Shown here: positions 3 to 29,592 of the stretch, piece by piece | Position numbering within the stretch: position 1 is the stretch's first letter | Layout: every line of letters begins with the position of its first letter | Source: a virus | Taxonomy: Duplodnaviria; Caudoviricetes | Virus record (IMG/VR): IMGVR_UViG_3300048629_000106 | Coordinates: 1-29,592 of that record | Length of the DNA stretch: 29,592 nt | Reading direction: 5' to 3' (one strand) | Notes under the pieces: generated by a model | What the model was told of the DNA's origin: nothing | What the model saw: the letters and a program-made list of their open reading frames with translations, nothing else | Databases searched by the model: none | Program-made: the position numbers and the translations under genes

Positions 3-1437
3 TATACGTGGATAAAGTATGCTGATGATGTGAATGGTAGTAATATGAGTAATGACCCGACTGGCAAAGATTATTTGGGTATTGCTTATAATAAAAGCAC
101 AGCAACTGAGAGTAATGACCCTGCGGATTATACTTGGAGCTTGTATAAGGGTAGTGATGGCGTGGATGGTGTAGATGGTACTAGTACTTACACGTGGATA
201 AAATATGCTGATGATGATAGCGGTGGAGGTATGAGCGATGACCCAGATGGTAAGGAGTATATGGGAATTGCTTATAATAAGACTACTATTACTGAGGGGA
301 CTAATCCTGCGGATTATAGTTGGAGTTTGATTAAGGGTTCGGATGGTGCGGACGGGTTGTCTACTTATACTTGGATAAAATATGCTGATGATGTGAATGG
401 TAGTAATATGAGTAATGACCCTGCTGGCAAGGATTATTTGGGAATTGCTTACAATAAAAACACGGCTACTGAGAGTATAGACCCTGCGGATTATACTTGG
501 AGTTTGTATAAGGGTAGTGATGGTGTGGATGGTGTAGATGGTACTAGCACTTATACGTGGATAAAGTATGCTGATGATGATAGCGGTACTGGTATGAGTG
601 ACGACCCCGATGGTAAGGAATATATGGGAATTGCTTATAACAAGACTACTATTACTGAGGGGACTAATCCTGCGGATTATAGTTGGAGTTTGATTAAGGG
701 TTCGGATGGTGCTGACGGTTTATCTACGTATACGTGGATAAAGTATGCTGATGATGTGAATGGTAGCAATATGAGTAATGACCCGACTGGCAAGGATTAT
801 TTGGGTATTGCTTACAATAAAAATACAGCAACTGAGAGTACAGACCCTGCGGATTATACTTGGAGCCTGTATAAGGGTAGTGATGGTGTGGATGGCGTAG
901 ATGGTACTAGCACTTATACCTGGATAAAGTATGCTGATGATGATAGCGGTACTGGTATGAGCGACGACCCCGATGGTAAGGAGTATATGGGGATTGCTTA
1001 TAACAAGACTACTATTACTGAGGGGACTAATCCTGCGGATTATAGTTGGAGTTTGATTAAGGGTTCGGATGGTGTGGACGGGTTGTCTACTTATACTTGG
1101 ATAAAGTATGCTGATGATGATAGCGGTACTGGTTTGAGTAATGACCCTGCTGGCAAGGATTATTTGGGTATTGCTTACAATAAGAATACAGCAACTGAAA
1201 GCACAGACCCTGCGGATTATACTTGGAGTTTGTATAAGGGTAGTGATGGTGTGGATGGTGTGGATGGTACTAGCACTTATACCTGGATAAAGTATGCTGA
1301 TGATGATAGCGGTGGTGGTATGAGCGACGACCCAGATGGTAAGGAATATATGGGAATTGCTTATAATAAGAATACTGTTACTGAGAGTACTAATCCTGCG
1401 GATTATAGCTGGAGTCTGATTAAGGGTTCGGACGGAT
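3..1437 (+). repeat. Intragenic tandem repeat: alternating 186-bp (A) and 177-bp (B) units, 363-bp super-period, 8 units in window
   Basis: The YTW codons start at 3, 189, 366, 552, 729, 915, 1092 and 1278. Same-type units differ mostly at synonymous sites. Confidence 0.97.
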
Positions 1438-15998: not shown

Positions 15999-16026
15999 TT
16001 GCAAAATTATTGCAAACCATTATATT
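15999..16026 (+). promoter_or_regulatory. Putative sigma70-type promoter of the integrase, overlapping a TATTGCAAA direct repeat
   Basis: TTGCAA (15999-16004), 16-nt spacer, TATATT (16021-16026). TATTGCAAA occurs at 15997 and 16008. Confidence 0.4.
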
Positions 16027-16062
16027 ACTCTTTTAACCATGACCAACCAAAGGAGTAGTATA

Positions 16063-17226
16063 ATGGTAAATATTTATTTTGAAGAAAAAAGAGGGTATTT
16101 TATAACCTTCAGGCGTAATGGAAAAAATTTCTTTAGAACCTTAAAGGGTTTTAAAGACAAAGAGGCAGATGCCGAAATAGTAAAATCTATAGCAAAGGTT
16201 GTAGATACTGTATTGGTAAACCAACAAAGAACAAATACAGTTCTTAATCTATTGAGGGAAGTTTCTCGGTCTGTAAAAATATCTGATTTCCGATTGCCTA
16301 TAGTAGATGTCTGGGTACAATACTTATCCAGGCCAAACAAAAAACAAAATAGTATTGATACTGAAAAAGCAAGAGGTAATAAATGGCAGGTATTTGTCAG
16401 ATATATTACCAAAGAGTATCCTGAGCTATTGTACCTGCACGAAATAACCCCTGTACATATTCAGTCATATATGGATTATCTTTCTAAACAACTAAAGTCC
16501 GCTACTACTATCAATAATACTATTGGTTCTCTTAGTGTAGTATGGCAACGCCTAATGATAGATTATAGTATTTTTCTTAACCCGTGCAAATGTGTTGAAA
16601 AATTCAAAGCTGTAGTAATCAAAAAGGACAACTTAACGCCTGAAGAAATATCCTCACTATGGTTAGTAGCCCAATCTTGGGCATCTGGCGAAGGAAGCTA
16701 CACCACCCAACAAAAACCATTTTGGGCATTTGCAGTGGCGACTGCATATTATACTGGCTTACGTATTGGAGATATTGCTAATATTAAATATGATAACTTG
16801 GATTTAGATAATATGATATTAACCATCACTCCCCACAAGACCGAAAAAACAAATGCAAAACCATTACAACATGTTATTCATCCTGATATGCTAAAATATA
16901 TCCCATTGGATAGATCTAGTGAATATCTTTACCCTTATTATGCAAATGGTTGCAAAACCAATGCAAGTTGGTTCTGGGCAGAACAAAGAAACCTATTTGC
17001 TGAAGCAAATATTGTTACTACCAAAGAGACTCACCAAGGTAAACGAGTAACAAAGGGTATGCATTCCCTTCGGGTACATTACGCCACCACTCTATTAGAT
17101 TGTGGCGTACCTTTATCTGATGTACAGGGTGGTATGGGTCATAGCTCCCCTGCTATGACTGCATCATACAATCGTACCATAGATGCAGGATTAAAAAATG
17201 CTAAAAAAATAAAGAACATAAGTTGA
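16063..17226 (+). CDS. int: Tyrosine recombinase / phage integrase
   Basis: Catalytic residues in YTGLRIGD (R), PHKTEK (K), HSLR (HxxR) and MGHSSPAMTASY (H, Y), with a core-binding region upstream. The start is placed at ATG 16063 because AAGGAG lies at 16050-16055. Confidence 0.92.
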   Translation: MVNIYFEEKRGYFITFRRNGKNFFRTLKGFKDKEADAEIVKSIAKVVDTVLVNQQRTNTVLNLLREVSRSVKISDFRLPIVDVWVQYLSRPNKKQNSIDTEKARGNKWQVFVRYITKEYPELLYLHEITPVHIQSYMDYLSKQLKSATTINNTIGSLSVVWQRLMIDYSIFLNPCKCVEKFKAVVIKKDNLTPEEISSLWLVAQSWASGEGSYTTQQKPFWAFAVATAYYTGLRIGDIANIKYDNLDLDNMILTITPHKTEKTNAKPLQHVIHPDMLKYIPLDRSSEYLYPYYANGCKTNASWFWAEQRNLFAEANIVTTKETHQGKRVTKGMHSLRVHYATTLLDCGVPLSDVQGGMGHSSPAMTASYNRTIDAGLKNAKKIKNIS

Positions 17227-17323
17227 AAAATAAAAATGCCGTTGTAAGGTATAAATACAACGGCATTGAAGCCTGCTAGAGAATATTAACAATATTTATC
17301 TTTTAGACTAGCAGGCTTTTTTT
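17226..17323. terminator. Bidirectional double-hairpin intrinsic terminator between the convergent arms
   Basis: AATGCCGTTGTA (17235-46)/TACAACGGCATT (17256-67) is preceded by an A-tract (U-tail on -). AAGCCTGCTAG (17269-79)/CTAGCAGGCTT (17308-18) is followed by a T-tract (U-tail on +). Confidence 0.8.
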
Positions 17324-17879
17324 ATGTTATAGTGCTTATATACATTTTTCTTTCTATTTGTACTTGTAGTACAGTAAACCCTCTTGATTTATACATGACC
17401 ACAACATCAGGTTCATCATCCAGTACCGCAACCACATTTCTCGGGGTTAATCCCATTTTTTGAATAATTTCCTCTTTAACTTTCCAGTTGGGGTTGTTAT
17501 CTCCAATATCTCTCATTTTTAAAATCAAGTTTGCACTTGGATAAAAAGGAAAGCACTCAACCAATAACTCTTTTGTTTCATATCTAACCACTTCACTTCT
17601 ACCCGTAATGAAAATAGGCTTAATATCTGTGTTACTTATAATATCATTAACCAGCTTAATAACATTATAGTTTTTCTTGTCATTCCACACTGTGGAATAA
17701 TATTTATCCCAATCAGTATTACAACTATGCATTAATACCTCTCTTTTGAGTTCTGATATAGTAGTGGCATAATATTTATCCCGACCAGTATTACAACTAT
17801 GCATTAATACCTCTCTTTTATGGTCTGGTATAGTAATAGTACCATCAATATCAACTATTATATATAACTCGTTATTCAT
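17322..17879 (-). CDS. HAD-superfamily phosphatase resembling the 3'-phosphatase domain of T4 polynucleotide kinase, with no kinase domain
   Basis: Motifs DIDGT, ITGR, a conserved K and LDDEP..V. GGAG spacing favours ATG 17879 over 17885. Contains an internal 72-bp-period duplication. Confidence 0.8.
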   Translation of the reverse strand: MNNELYIIVDIDGTITIPDHKREVLMHSCNTGRDKYYATTISELKREVLMHSCNTDWDKYYSTVWNDKKNYNVIKLVNDIISNTDIKPIFITGRSEVVRYETKELLVECFPFYPSANLILKMRDIGDNNPNWKVKEEIIQKMGLTPRNVVAVLDDEPDVVVMYKSRGFTVLQVQIERKMYISTIT

Positions 17880-17928: not shown

Positions 17929-18132
17929 TTAGCTACTCTTAAATAAAGTCCAGATATAAACTCCTGGGACGTTTATTGCTATAGGTGAGGATTGGTTATA
18001 GGCCAAACCCACATAGGTTTTTCCTATAGGGCTATCATCCATGTCCCATCCTCTAGGGTTATTAGCATACTTTATCCAGGTGTAAGTAGGAGTCTTGTCT
18101 ATTATTAATTTTGGGGTTTGTGTCTGGTTCAT
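17929..18132 (-). CDS. 67-aa protein made of one stand-alone copy of the tail-protein YTWIKYA repeat domain
   Basis: TYTWIKYA..G..M...P.GK.Y.G.AYN.........P..Y.W.L.K aligns without gaps to the tail repeats. ATGA overlap with the upstream DUF5131 gene. Confidence 0.8.
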   Translation of the reverse strand: MNQTQTPKLIIDKTPTYTWIKYANNPRGWDMDDSPIGKTYVGLAYNQSSPIAINVPGVYIWTLFKSS

Positions 18133-21940: not shown

Positions 21941-22344
21941 AATATGTTATCCTCTATTAATTTTATTATTTTTGATTTAATAGCTGGGGTTGCGTAATCT
22001 AACCCTTTTTTATATTCTCTGGTCTTTATTATGTCTGCAACCCATTCAGGACGTAACCATCTAAGTCGATTATAAACCGCACTTATTGTACCTTTTTCTT
22101 GAATTGTAAATGTTTCTGTTGAGGAATCAATTTTAATTTCATAGCCCATTTTGTGGGCTAGCTCTATAGCTTCTTGTTGTTGTGTGTTTAATTCATTTGT
22201 CATGGTTTTATTTTCTTTCTTTTTGGTTTGGTAGGTTGCTCCCAATATGCTATTTTGGGGTATCGGTATGTTATTCTGGTATGGGTTGTTTAACATGTCT
22301 TTCATTTCTTTGTATGTTAAATGTTTTTCGGGTAGTGTTGTCAT
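21937..22344 (-). CDS. Hypothetical protein (135 aa; alternative start at 22203)
   Basis: Operon-oriented ORF with an AAAGG SD. Confidence 0.6.
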   Translation of the reverse strand: MTTLPEKHLTYKEMKDMLNNPYQNNIPIPQNSILGATYQTKKKENKTMTNELNTQQQEAIELAHKMGYEIKIDSSTETFTIQEKGTISAVYNRLRWLRPEWVADIIKTREYKKGLDYATPAIKSKIIKLIEDNIL

Positions 22345-22349
22345 TATTT

Positions 22350-22637
22350 TTACCTTTCTAATTTTTCCAATAGTTCTTTGGGTGAGATACCATTATGGCA
22401 CTCATCACAATAATTTTTAACACAACCCTCTTGGTAGTTACCCATTGTATCAACAAAATGCTTATAATGCTTGTTAATTAAAATATCACAAACACGACAA
22501 ATATATACAGTATATATCATACCGTCGTTAATACACGTTTCAGACAATGTGGTCTTTCCAACCTGTATTTCTTCTCCACAACAATGGCATTCGTGGGGTT
22601 TGTTGATTTTTACAGATTTAGTTCTGAGGCATTTCAT
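22350..22637 (-). CDS. Small zinc-finger-like phage protein (95 aa)
   Basis: HECHCCGEEI..G, CRVC and CDEC motifs; AGGA SD. Confidence 0.7.
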   Translation of the reverse strand: MKCLRTKSVKINKPHECHCCGEEIQVGKTTLSETCINDGMIYTVYICRVCDILINKHYKHFVDTMGNYQEGCVKNYCDECHNGISPKELLEKLER

Positions 22638-22641
22638 CGTT

Positions 22642-22989
22642 TTAAATTCCTATGTATAATATAGATTTTTTTATCCACCACGTTAATTTTTCCCCATTGT
22701 CTAATTCTTGGTTTATTCTTTTAATCATCTTTTCTTTTAGATGATTTTTGACATCTGCTTGCTCTAATACAAAGTGGCGGTTGGTATCCAATATAATTAT
22801 AGTTGGTATCATACCTTTTTCTGGGGTGTAGTAATAAAATCTTATTTTACCTTCTATTCTTTTTATAGTGTTTTTATATTTTTTTGGGGTAGGCAAGAGT
22901 TTTTCTGAATAAATGGCTTCACGAGCGATGCCATTTATTTTACATGTTAACCCACTATCTTTTTGATTTAATATATCAATAATTATCAT
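22642..22989 (-). CDS. Hypothetical protein (115 aa)
   Basis: Strong AAGGAGG SD. Confidence 0.7.
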   Translation of the reverse strand: MIIIDILNQKDSGLTCKINGIAREAIYSEKLLPTPKKYKNTIKRIEGKIRFYYYTPEKGMIPTIIILDTNRHFVLEQADVKNHLKEKMIKRINQELDNGEKLTWWIKKSILYIGI

Positions 22990-23153
22990 ACATTCCTCCT
23001 TTCTTGGGTGGGGGAGTTATTAACCCTTAGATCTGTGATATTTATTTTATACATTGGTTGTTTTTGTTGGTTAAAAACAACCATAGTTCTCTTTGCTTTG
23101 CCGTCTAGCATATTAATAATAGGCTGTATTGCTTCTTGAGTTATTCTATTCAT
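22986..23153 (-). CDS. Small hypothetical protein (55 aa, MNRITQEAIQPIINMLDGK...RRNV), below the ORF-track cutoff
   Basis: Translated by hand; its TGA overlaps the ATG of the next gene (ATGA) and it fills an operon gap. SD is weak. Confidence 0.55.
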   Translation of the reverse strand: MNRITQEAIQPIINMLDGKAKRTMVVFNQQKQPMYKINITDLRVNNSPTQERRNV

Positions 23154-23257
23154 TTTTTAAACTTCTTTCGGTTGGTTTTATGTGGTTTTAATCTGTAGCA
23201 GCTGCAGCTGCTATTTAGCCACAAAAAAATATTTCTTTTTAAAATAGCCAAAATATT

Positions 23258-23695
23258 TTATGTGGTTTTAATTTCTTCGGTGATAAAATCAAACTCTTTG
23301 TTTCTATAACCGCAGGAAAATACGTAAATATATGCATCTTCCAGATTGTGCTTCTGATATTCTAAGTATTCTTCCGCACCTTTCCTCGTAAGAAAAAATG
23401 CAACTGGTCTATCAATCCAAAACCTCATTACCTGCTGAGGCTTTTTCATTCCGCAGGAACATTCTTTAATTTCCCGTTCTTCCTCGTCTGCATCATCATA
23501 CCAACCCTCTTGTGGTCTTTTTTCTTTAAAGTTGGTAATGCCTGAAATTTCCTCGCAATTTAGAGCAATCTGTTCTTCTAATTTTAACACTACGTACATT
23601 GGTTTGCAGGTAAAGCGGTTTTCGCCTACTTCTATTTCTTTAAGTCTTTGTTTCCAAACTTCTTTAATATTGTTAATATTTAATTCTTCGCTCAT
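23258..23695 (-). CDS. Hypothetical phage protein (145 aa)
   Basis: AAGGA SD; C-terminal FFLTRKGAEEYL...HNL...YIYV.S..RN.E pattern that looks like a conserved phage family. Confidence 0.75.
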   Translation of the reverse strand: MSEELNINNIKEVWKQRLKEIEVGENRFTCKPMYVVLKLEEQIALNCEEISGITNFKEKRPQEGWYDDADEEEREIKECSCGMKKPQQVMRFWIDRPVAFFLTRKGAEEYLEYQKHNLEDAYIYVFSCGYRNKEFDFITEEIKTT

Positions 23696-23710
23696 GATTT
23701 TAATTCCTTT

Positions 23711-24046
23711 TTATTGAAAATATTTGCTGTATCCGGGCATTGGTCTGCCCCATTGGCTAGCGTCTTTAACAATTGCACCTGTTGTACAATCAACAAACCA
23801 ACCATTGAATAACACAATTGCATGTGCTTCGTCTGGTACATCTGGCAATTGTATTACCACTATCATAGCATTATATCCATGTCGCTGTAAAAAGTCAATA
23901 AACATACTGCATTTTGCGTTGCAATTATGTTGCCGTAACTCAACAATAGCCTCTAGTTCATTTTGAATAAATGGCTCAAATTGAAATTCCCGTTTGGGGA
24001 AATATTTTTTAATTCTATTCCATATTTTTTTAATAAATTTAAGCAT
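23711..24046 (-). CDS. Transglutaminase/papain-like Cys-His-Asp fold protein (111 aa)
   Basis: HNCNAK (Cys), AHAIV (His) and WFVDCT (Asp) in transglutaminase-like order and spacing; AGGAG SD. Confidence 0.6.
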   Translation of the reverse strand: MLKFIKKIWNRIKKYFPKREFQFEPFIQNELEAIVELRQHNCNAKCSMFIDFLQRHGYNAMIVVIQLPDVPDEAHAIVLFNGWFVDCTTGAIVKDASQWGRPMPGYSKYFQ

Positions 24047-24048
24047 TT

Positions 24049-24666
24049 TTACTCCTGTTCTTGTTTTTGTGATAGGAAAAATCCCTCACCCCCGTCGAAA
24101 ATAAATTTAAACATATCACCATTTATAGGTGTATCATACATTTTTAAGTTTGGCAACATGTATAGTAGCCGCATGGCGTTGGGGTGGAATGTACGAGAAA
24201 ATAATTCTCTACAGTTTTCGGACGATTCAACAACCACTTTTCCTTGATCGCACCACTCGCAATCTTGTTGGTTTGGATATTTATCTCCTGAGACTGTTCC
24301 GATTCCTCCGCAGGTGTCGCATGATACTTCATAACAACTGTAAGCCGTGCTAAAATCAAGAAATCCTGCCCCCTCGCACTCGGGGCAGGTAGTGTATTTT
24401 CCTGTACTATTGCATGTTGTGCAATCGGTCATTAGTATATCAACAGGAGTAATCAGTGCTAGCTTTCCTTTGTTAGGCAAGGAAAACCATTTTATAGCTT
24501 GGTCTGATAATGTCCAAGCTAAAGAGATAGCACCTGATTCGGGAATTCTTATCAAGACTCGTCCATCTGTATAATAATCATACCATTGGTGATTCATTGG
24601 CTTGTTTATGAGTTTATTATTTTTGCTTAGAAACTTGTTTAATGTTTCTTGCTCTATAATTTCCAT
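24049..24666 (-). CDS. Phage protein with DnaJ-type CxxCxGxG zinc-finger repeats (no J domain)
   Basis: CTTCNSTG, CPECEGAG, CDTCGGIG and CEWCDQG; AGGAG SD. Confidence 0.75.
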   Translation of the reverse strand: MEIIEQETLNKFLSKNNKLINKPMNHQWYDYYTDGRVLIRIPESGAISLAWTLSDQAIKWFSLPNKGKLALITPVDILMTDCTTCNSTGKYTTCPECEGAGFLDFSTAYSCYEVSCDTCGGIGTVSGDKYPNQQDCEWCDQGKVVVESSENCRELFSRTFHPNAMRLLYMLPNLKMYDTPINGDMFKFIFDGGEGFFLSQKQEQE

Positions 24667-25169: not shown

Positions 25170-25427
25170 TTAATCCTCTATTATTTTTGCTAATAGTTCT
25201 TCTTTGTGGACTATTAGAAATTCTTTATCATTGATAAAAATTGGGTTTCCGCTATAAGTACTGATTACTACAACATCTTGTGGGCGTACATCTTGTGTGC
25301 TTCCTTTTATTAGTCGGCAGGTTAGTGCCTTGTTTGTAGGTTTGGGGTTAATAATAATTATCCCCGTGGGGTTCACTGCTGGTATCACTTCTAGTAATAC
25401 TCTATTGTCGGGTAATTTAATAGGCAT
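25170..25427 (-). CDS. GroES/Cpn10-like co-chaperonin
   Basis: IKLPDNRVLL, TGIII mobile-loop motif, DVVVISTYSG and EFLIVHKEELLAKI in an 85-aa protein. Confidence 0.8.
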   Translation of the reverse strand: MPIKLPDNRVLLEVIPAVNPTGIIIINPKPTNKALTCRLIKGSTQDVRPQDVVVISTYSGNPIFINDKEFLIVHKEELLAKIIED

Positions 25428-28751: not shown

Positions 28752-29249
28752 TTAGTATCTCATTCTTCTTAGCCATTTGTTTTCTTTTTGGCGTGGTTGG
28801 TTTTTGTCTTCGTTTTTTTTGTTTTGAGTCTTTGGAACTTTTATGCTTCTAAAACAATTCTCTAGGTAAGATATAATTGCCTTGTGTTTTATGTTGGCAA
28901 TTTCTGCTTGTTTAATTCTTAGATTAAACCTATTGATAAATTCATCCAAAGATAAATTACTCTGGATCTTTCTTATTTCTTCGATGCTTGCTGCATCTAG
29001 TTCTGTGTACTTCCCTATATTAATTTTACTCTTTTCCTCTGTTGTTGCAGGAGTAAAGATGTATTGGTTCCCTTTTAGCTTTGTAATTTTCCCAAATTCG
29101 CCCTCTTTGCAACATGCCTTAAAGCGAGTTACCCTTCTGGGGTTGTCATCTATAAAGGTTTTTGGGGTGGTATCGTCCATTTTTGCAAAAAACTTGCAAA
29201 ACTTGGGGTTTTCGCCTAATATTTCTAATTGTTTTCTGCTTATTTTCAT
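28752..29249 (-). CDS. Hypothetical protein upstream of DnaB, possibly a replication initiator/loader
   Basis: AAGGA SD 9 nt before the ATG; first gene of the operon; basic C-terminal tail. Function is inferred from position only. Confidence 0.5.
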   Translation of the reverse strand: MKISRKQLEILGENPKFCKFFAKMDDTTPKTFIDDNPRRVTRFKACCKEGEFGKITKLKGNQYIFTPATTEEKSKINIGKYTELDAASIEEIRKIQSNLSLDEFINRFNLRIKQAEIANIKHKAIISYLENCFRSIKVPKTQNKKNEDKNQPRQKENKWLRRMRY

Positions 29250-29268
29250 ATTTAACTATCCTTATGAT

Positions 29269-29300
29269 TAAACAATATAAACAATATAAACAATACAATA
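29269..29300. repeat. TAAACAATA x3 tandem repeat (plus partial copy) upstream of the replication operon
   Basis: Copies at 29269, 29278 and 29287. Confidence 0.85.
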
Positions 29301-29331
29301 CAAAAAAACAACACCTAAAAACAAAATAAAT

Positions 29332-29384
29332 AAAAAAGGTGTGCTAGCTGTTGGGGATAGGATGGGTAGGACTAGCACACCTGT
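29332..29384 (-). ncRNA. Candidate small RNA 2: 11-bp stem, 24-nt CU-rich loop, U-tail
   Basis: AGGTGTGCTAG (29337-47)/CTAGCACACCT (29372-82); an A-tract on + gives the U-tail on -; lies just downstream of promoter repeat 1. Confidence 0.5.
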
Positions 29385-29389
29385 TATAT

Positions 29390-29427
29390 ATAATACCACC
29401 CAAAAAACTTAGTTACAAGATGTTAGT
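29390..29427 (-). promoter_or_regulatory. Promoter repeat copy 1 (TTGTAA-17-TATTAT, extended -10 TG)
   Basis: The minus strand reads ttgtaa ctaagttttttgggtgg tattat; 33/36 identical to copy 2. Confidence 0.7.
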
Positions 29428-29449
29428 ATGGTATTTTTCTAAAATAAAC

Positions 29450-29527
29450 AAAAAAAAGATGCAACCAAAGGAGAGTATAGTTGCATCTGTGGTTTTATAA
29501 TCGCCTTTCGGCTTTATGCGGTTTACT
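29450..29527 (-). ncRNA. Candidate small RNA 1: GAAA-tetraloop hairpin plus terminator hairpin whose loop is antisense to the integrase RBS
   Basis: The minus strand has GCC-GAAA-GGC, then AGATGCAAC-TATACTCTCCTTTG-GTTGCATCT and a U-run; lies downstream of promoter repeat 2. Confidence 0.6.
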
Positions 29528-29532
29528 TAATT

Positions 29533-29570
29533 AAAATACCACCTCAAAAACTTAGTTACAAGATGTTGGT
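29533..29570 (-). promoter_or_regulatory. Promoter repeat copy 2 (TTGTAA-17-TATTTT, extended -10 TG)
   Basis: 36-bp direct repeat located 143 bp from copy 1. Confidence 0.65.
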
Positions 29571-29592
29571 GTAATAAAAAATAAAAAAAAGG

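Follow-up and report, generated by a model that had tools for sequence, protein, structure and literature searches.

The integrase of this phage is likely held down by two RNA locks, which in our model are a predicted RNA acting in trans and a cis hairpin in the integrase leader. With moderate confidence, we propose that a predicted RNA of 79 nt would pair across the integrase SD and repress integrase translation. The modelled cis hairpin is a new element that was absent from an earlier note on this DNA. The window, i.e., the whole stretch of 29,592 bp analysed here, is an entire contig and represents a partial genome of an uncultured temperate tailed phage. Features that enter the argument are given below with their coordinates and strand.

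15999..16026, plus strand: integrase promoter-like site, TTGCAA-16-TATATT, detected by promoter scan; it has a TTGC-N7-TTGC repeat, and its -10 overlaps the cis hairpin, within the 5' arm
16016..16067, plus strand: predicted cis hairpin of 19 bp, arms 16016-16034 and 16049-16067, z -6.4
16044..16062, plus strand: target of the antisense, the integrase leader with the SD, adjoining the ATG; 18 of 19 bases are kept in the relative L001
16063..17226, plus strand: tyrosine integrase, 387 aa (PF00589, E 4.9e-18; phrog_1, E 2e-39)
29328..29384, minus strand: predicted sRNA 2, ~57 nt, with one 12-bp hairpin, a 22-nt C/U-rich open loop and a U-tract
29390..29418, minus strand: promoter-like P2, TTGTAA-17-TATTAT, TG before the -10, found by promoter scan
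29449..29527, minus strand: predicted sRNA 1, ~79 nt, with a 5' arm carrying a GAAA-capped hairpin, then the terminator hairpin and a U-tract
29457..29488, minus strand: hairpin T1, then a U run; 9 Watson-Crick pairs plus a U-G and an A-U pair, 10-nt loop at 29468-29477
29462..29479, minus strand: 18-nt antisense to the integrase start region, with 10 nt in the loop and 8 in the top of the stem
29533..29561, minus strand: promoter-like P1, TTGTAA-17-TATTTT, TG before the -10; 8/12 consensus, below the scan threshold, near-identical to P2
29575..29592, minus strand: U-rich tail at the contig end, read from sequence only

The plus strand carries the virion genes, the last of which encodes a 3642-aa LPD38/helicase protein, and the leftward block includes genes annotated by domain and PHROG as excisionase-like, Arc-like, primase and DnaB. 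Domain and PHROG searches gave no usable match for the function of ORF165. Among the annotated proteins of the contig there was no recognisable repressor, terminase or capsid protein, and the genes for these presumably lie outside it; a search for tRNA and tmRNA genes returned none. The early block also contains a GroES-like (Cpn10) gene (25170-25427, minus strand) and a 67-aa ORF (17929-18132, minus strand) which resembles, in inverted orientation, a repeat unit (912-949, plus strand) of the tail protein (30-2780). Two hydrothermal-vent runs contain the searched stretch and are a possible origin of it; there was no RNA dataset among those listed as containing it. In run X2, positions 22180-24641 were covered at a depth of ~190-255-fold with no other letters while most other compared sequence was near zero, a distribution which suggests that this segment is a module common to another abundant element. 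Distant relatives of the integrase (23-36% identity) were mostly from Lentisphaerae, Kiritimatiellae and Verrucomicrobia genomes, and this placement in PVC-group genomes hints at the host without fixing it.

The antisense match agreed in letters and coordinates with its first description: between 29462-29479 and 16044-16062 there are 12 exact nt, a bulged T (16056) and 6 exact nt. The target runs up to the base that precedes the integrase ATG (16063), and the antisense locus is ~13.4 kb away. For the stretch 29455-29530, the longest exact match elsewhere in the contig is the 12 nt in the integrase leader (the runner-up has 10 nt), and the matched site is non-palindromic and present in only two copies in the contig. 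The assignment of the RNA to the minus strand was also supported, with a U-tract on the minus side only, a promoter-like block upstream, and a fold z of -3.6 for the minus versus -1.1 for the plus strand. The earlier note had further placed 14 of the paired bases in the exposed loop, and here it has to be corrected: the loop of the RNA strand has 10 nt because a U-G and an A-U pair shut the 14-nt loop left by Watson-Crick pairs, and each of the remaining 8 of 18 antisense bases has P(unpaired) <=0.04 in the RNA-strand fold.

As a prediction, trans pairing across the integrase SD was supported. When the 18-mer was ranked against 28 start regions, the integrase was first at -25.4 kcal/mol and the next was at -12.8 (a gap of 12.6), these duplex energies taking no account of kissing-loop geometry. 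It was also the best non-self site on both strands of the contig, where the next site was at -16.5. The same ranking bears on the concern, raised together with the original claim, that many RBSs might pair equally well, and this was not observed. By itself, the exposed seed of 10 nt hardly discriminates between starts (-10.8 for the integrase versus -9.3 for gene 3674, a gap of 1.5 kcal/mol), and 12.6 kcal/mol would be needed to open the site in full; we count both against the antisense reading.

The last 340 bases of the contig hold two near-identical minus-strand promoter-like blocks, with a GC-containing hairpin and then a U run downstream of each. The start of sRNA 1 was placed from the position of P1, and the resulting RNA folds at -19.3 kcal/mol (1 of 200 shuffles was as good); sRNA 2 folds at -18.4 (0 of 200). 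No minus-strand ORF of at least 20 aa is found inside unit 1, and a 15-codon AUG frame, which has no SD, passes through its terminator. A contig of a second study (run X3) spans 29136-29578, where it has 2 differing letters and 4 gaps of unplaced position; the cassette is therefore not an assembly artefact. Blastn against INPHARED with the cassette returned 9 short matches, each covering <=12% of the query. Unit 2 repeats the promoter-hairpin-U layout, and its 22-nt open loop lies just past the start, which fits RNAs made as products. No outlier among the 28 start regions was seen for sRNA 2, and neither the window nor six other loci yielded a target. The complement of its loop reads like a gene start (an SD rich in G, followed by AUG and by codons for Gly and Arg), and a gene matching it is absent from the contig and from the six loci. 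Several further elements were observed around the two units. The palindrome AACT-N-AGTT is common to P1 and P2, occurs nowhere else in the contig, and could be an operator or a mere trace of duplication. The U-rich tail at 29575-29592 likely belongs, judging from its letters, to another terminator, which would end there, upstream of P1. Short direct repeats with a AACAATAT-type unit lie just upstream of ORF165 (29270-29300) and are possible operator sites or origin iterons.

On the target side, the 67-nt gap before the integrase is predicted to fold into the cis hairpin, burying the SD and the AUG in read-through RNA. Opening the integrase start in the read-through context would cost 20.1 kcal/mol, and the next of 28 genes is at 8.5. 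The antisense match falls on the most occluded start of the 28, which we count in favour of the antisense reading. The non-Watson-Crick pairs of the cis hairpin are all U-G, as fits an RNA structure rather than a DNA inverted repeat. Since the -10 of the integrase promoter-like site lies inside the 5' arm, a transcript starting at ~16033-16039 would be without that arm and its start would be open; the opening cost of this short transcript is 3.6-3.8 kcal/mol. The TTGC-N7-TTGC repeat (15999-16013, plus strand) is nearly palindromic and is kept at 9937-9951 of L001; the motif has 10 matches in the window, and on sequence grounds the repeat is a possible operator or binding site of a CII-like activator. 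One contig from run X3 matches as far as 16027 and is unrelated beyond, a break which could be an att junction within the integrase leader or the edge of a short chance match. Behind the integrase, between it and the convergent kinase gene, two back-to-back hairpins (17235-17325) have a U-tract on one strand each; their stems are kept at 11151-11245 of L001, as are 16 nt of the second loop. This post-integrase hairpin loop was considered as a third sRNA and rejected, as its best partner reached only -12.4.

According to the model, P1 would fire and T1 would terminate transcription, the 10-nt loop of the RNA would pair first with the SD and the bases past it, and the top of the stem would then open to give a duplex of ~18 bp, blocking ribosome loading on the integrase start. 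The trans RNA would act only on the short transcript that starts at the promoter of the integrase itself, and read-through RNA from the virion operon would already be shut by the cis hairpin; the one start site would then have two locks, one per kind of transcript. Predicted net binding follows this division, at about -9 to -10.1 kcal/mol for the short integrase leader and -3.3 to +2 for read-through RNA. With regard to timing, we lean slightly towards both locks acting in lytic growth; a constitutive RNA that restrains Int in the lysogen would be equally compatible, and the cis lock would suit late lytic read-through. A wider scheme, which we offer tentatively and consider rather doubtful, is that exchangeable promoter-hairpin cassettes, arranged in tandem and differing in their anti-start-site loops, would set lysis-lysogeny genes: one cassette would silence the integrase, the second a gene outside the contig, and a third perhaps lies beyond the contig end, with the integrase also locked in cis on read-through RNA.

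Comparison with relatives gave a partial picture of conservation. Locus L001, whose integrase is 68% identical, was the only close relative found. It differs from this phage in one of the 19 target bases (G16058 to A) and keeps 19 of 19 pairs of the cis hairpin, two of them via a one-sided change and none via a two-sided one (its hairpin folds 21 pairs); with two sequences compared, this is thin evidence for conservation of the hairpin. The TTGC repeat and the -10 of the integrase promoter-like site are kept as well. Both the SD and the cis hairpin are confounders in judging conservation of the target. The G16058 to A change weakens pairing with the RNA of this phage to -19.5, and a matching loop change is predicted in L001. 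The relative's homologues of the primase (P0004) and of ORF165 (P0155) were each on a 5287-bp contig. Its cassette was not found by viral or genome scans, and the metagenome matches listed, from 16 of 64 parts, were distant primases. A hairpin pattern scan (38 of 64 parts) returned at least 119 loci with a longest stem of 7 bp versus 9 here, and none of the 40 of these 119 that were examined resembled a cassette homologue. For the clade of distant integrases, the start was usable at 83 of 103 loci (the other 20 were dropped because it was unaligned or at a contig edge). When the 82 other integrase starts were compared with their own loci (1.4-21 kb each, 10 kb flanks), no trans match scored above 14; the alignment score here is 16, from 29.6 kb searched. 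A few loci of this clade have strongly occluded starts, and as most of them are GC-rich, the occluded starts there support no inference. In G002, a distant prophage that shares the gene layout (29-33% identity), the DnaB operon is not preceded by a cassette; the provirus record of G002 begins at the integrase ATG. As far as seen, the feature is therefore not clade-wide.

Several other explanations of the cassette were weighed. P1 and P2 could be early promoters of the leftward replication operon, with T1 and T2 as attenuators passed by antitermination; the short RNAs would then be terminated leaders, and the integrase match would be secondary or a dual use. This is the main rival, and we consider it unlikely, even though both promoters face the ORF165-DnaB-primase operon and the promoter scan was empty between T2 and ORF165, where a weak promoter-like site can nevertheless be read by eye. 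The motif AAACC(A/G)CA(T/G)A, possibly an antitermination or RNA-binding site, occurs four times, always on the minus strand and in two hairpin-flanking pairs (29524/29495 and 23268/23188); in 100 shuffles its mean count was 0.25 and its maximum 2, for a motif defined after sight. On the other hand, no antiterminator gene was recognised among the 29 proteins of this partial contig, and attenuation alone leaves the 18-nt match to one start site unexplained. Attenuation is compatible with antisense action and both can coexist. With an attenuated leader the expected timing would differ, as accumulation of the RNA would then coincide with a lack of read-through. A plus-strand or DNA-level origin of the signal is very improbable. 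The matched letters could be a shared DNA- or protein-binding site, or the RBS of a 17-codon peptide sequestered in the hairpin in a toxin-antitoxin-like manner; on the plus strand, an SD is followed 7 nt on by TTG and a 17-codon frame, and a plus-strand hairpin would expose this SD in a 14-nt loop. However, the promoter scan showed no plus-strand promoter near the cassette, U-tracts are on the minus strand only, the plus fold was matched by 29 of 200 shuffles, and a binding site is disfavoured by the lack of a palindrome and the mere two occurrences.

It is quite unlikely, in our estimate, that the match is due to chance or is a relic, that is, an ordinary terminator whose pyrimidine-rich loop extends a generic anti-SD match, or a functionless copied piece of the leader. 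Part of the match is indeed generic, as had been pointed out at the outset: the anti-SD core CUCCUUU accounts for 7 of 18 bases, and 4 more are set by the stem (GUUG). Long loops also occur in further hairpins of this phage (17269-17318). Under the loosest null, in which the intergenic region was shuffled over its full 343 nt with both strands allowed, 306 of 9643 shuffles reached the score, much of which we attribute to A-run matches, uninspected; of 127 real AT-rich windows drawn from unrelated loci, 3 reached it too. With the core fixed, however, only 2 of 3590 shuffles were as good, and with both core and GUUG fixed 4 of 420, the latter including the real sequence. Also, dinucleotide shuffles of the two predicted RNAs against 27 start regions reached the alignment score once in 23010, and none of 1254 foreign SD-bearing starts from unrelated loci was as good (best -19.4, none within 6 kcal/mol). 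Besides, the match hits the sole start of 28 that is independently under strong predicted RNA control. The antisense feature is real and probably non-random. That the RNA is instead a broad anti-SD decoy damping many host or phage mRNAs, with the integrase merely its best partner, appears improbable: the exposed loop is mostly anti-SD and by itself puts the integrase just slightly ahead of the next gene, but the full 18 nt separates the integrase widely from the other start regions, a ranking that covered the 28 of the contig.

If the proposed antisense and cis control is true, a single start site would be governed by a compact RNA switch with two layers. The clade to which the integrase of this phage belongs comes mostly from PVC-group genomes. 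To our knowledge, integrase silencing in temperate phages has been worked out in detail for few systems. The textbook case of integrase shut-off is lambda sib. A search of the full-text literature, in which most subscription papers are outside coverage, gave no case of sRNA or antisense control of integrase translation by title or start of abstract. Similarly, in a 2025 review of phage sRNAs, the integrase is a target in 0 of 24 table rows and the word is absent from the main text (PMC12197685).

For comparison with known systems, we used five sources (PMC12197685, PMC5320573, PMC5415839, PMC5300877 and PMC2629481). The predicted cassette RNA has one feature of the trans-encoded sRNA class, a short imperfect complementarity to a distant start that is better than at other sites. 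A hairpin and U-tract are present, and of the two promoter-like sites P1 (8/12) was unlisted by the scan while its twin P2 was listed. In lambda, the integrase is made from its own promoter (pI/CII) and is held down on the long transcript by the RNA-level element sib (PMC5300877), and CII sites are given as TTGC-N6-TTGC (PMC2629481). The two-transcript logic here is like that of pI versus sib and the mechanism is different: sib acts downstream of int, whereas here a predicted 5' hairpin would shut the long transcript and the trans RNA the short one. The repeat here has a spacing of 7 instead of 6, and none of the genes of the partial contig was recognised as CII-like.

The sar RNA is encoded opposite its target and has full complementarity to it, whereas the RNA predicted here lies 13.4 kb from its target and is imperfectly complementary. 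The 2025 review describes sar of P22 as an RNA of 68-69 nt which prevents the initiation of translation by base pairing to a phage mRNA (PMC12197685). Its target is ant and the predicted target here is the integrase; of the features of sar, neither an Rfam family match nor an ant mRNA target was found. Rfam C4 had no match in the window at E<=5, and the region 29200-29592 gave at E<=10 five weak matches, all far below the gathering score and none of them C4. In comparison, c4 of P1/P7 is a trans-acting RNA of ~77 nt whose loops pair with the target mRNA, which partly occludes the RBS and bears on lysogeny (PMC5320573, PMC12197685), and it has three stem-loops with two target loops, a' and b' (PMC5320573). 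RNase P processing and an antirepressor target are features of c4. The RNA predicted here differs in having two hairpins with a single target loop, located in the terminator hairpin, as well as a predicted promoter of its own and an integrase target; its best partner is the integrase start, and an antirepressor could sit in the missing part of the genome. The cassette RNA is thus predicted to work like c4 and sar but to target the integrase, which places it outside the features that define membership of either.
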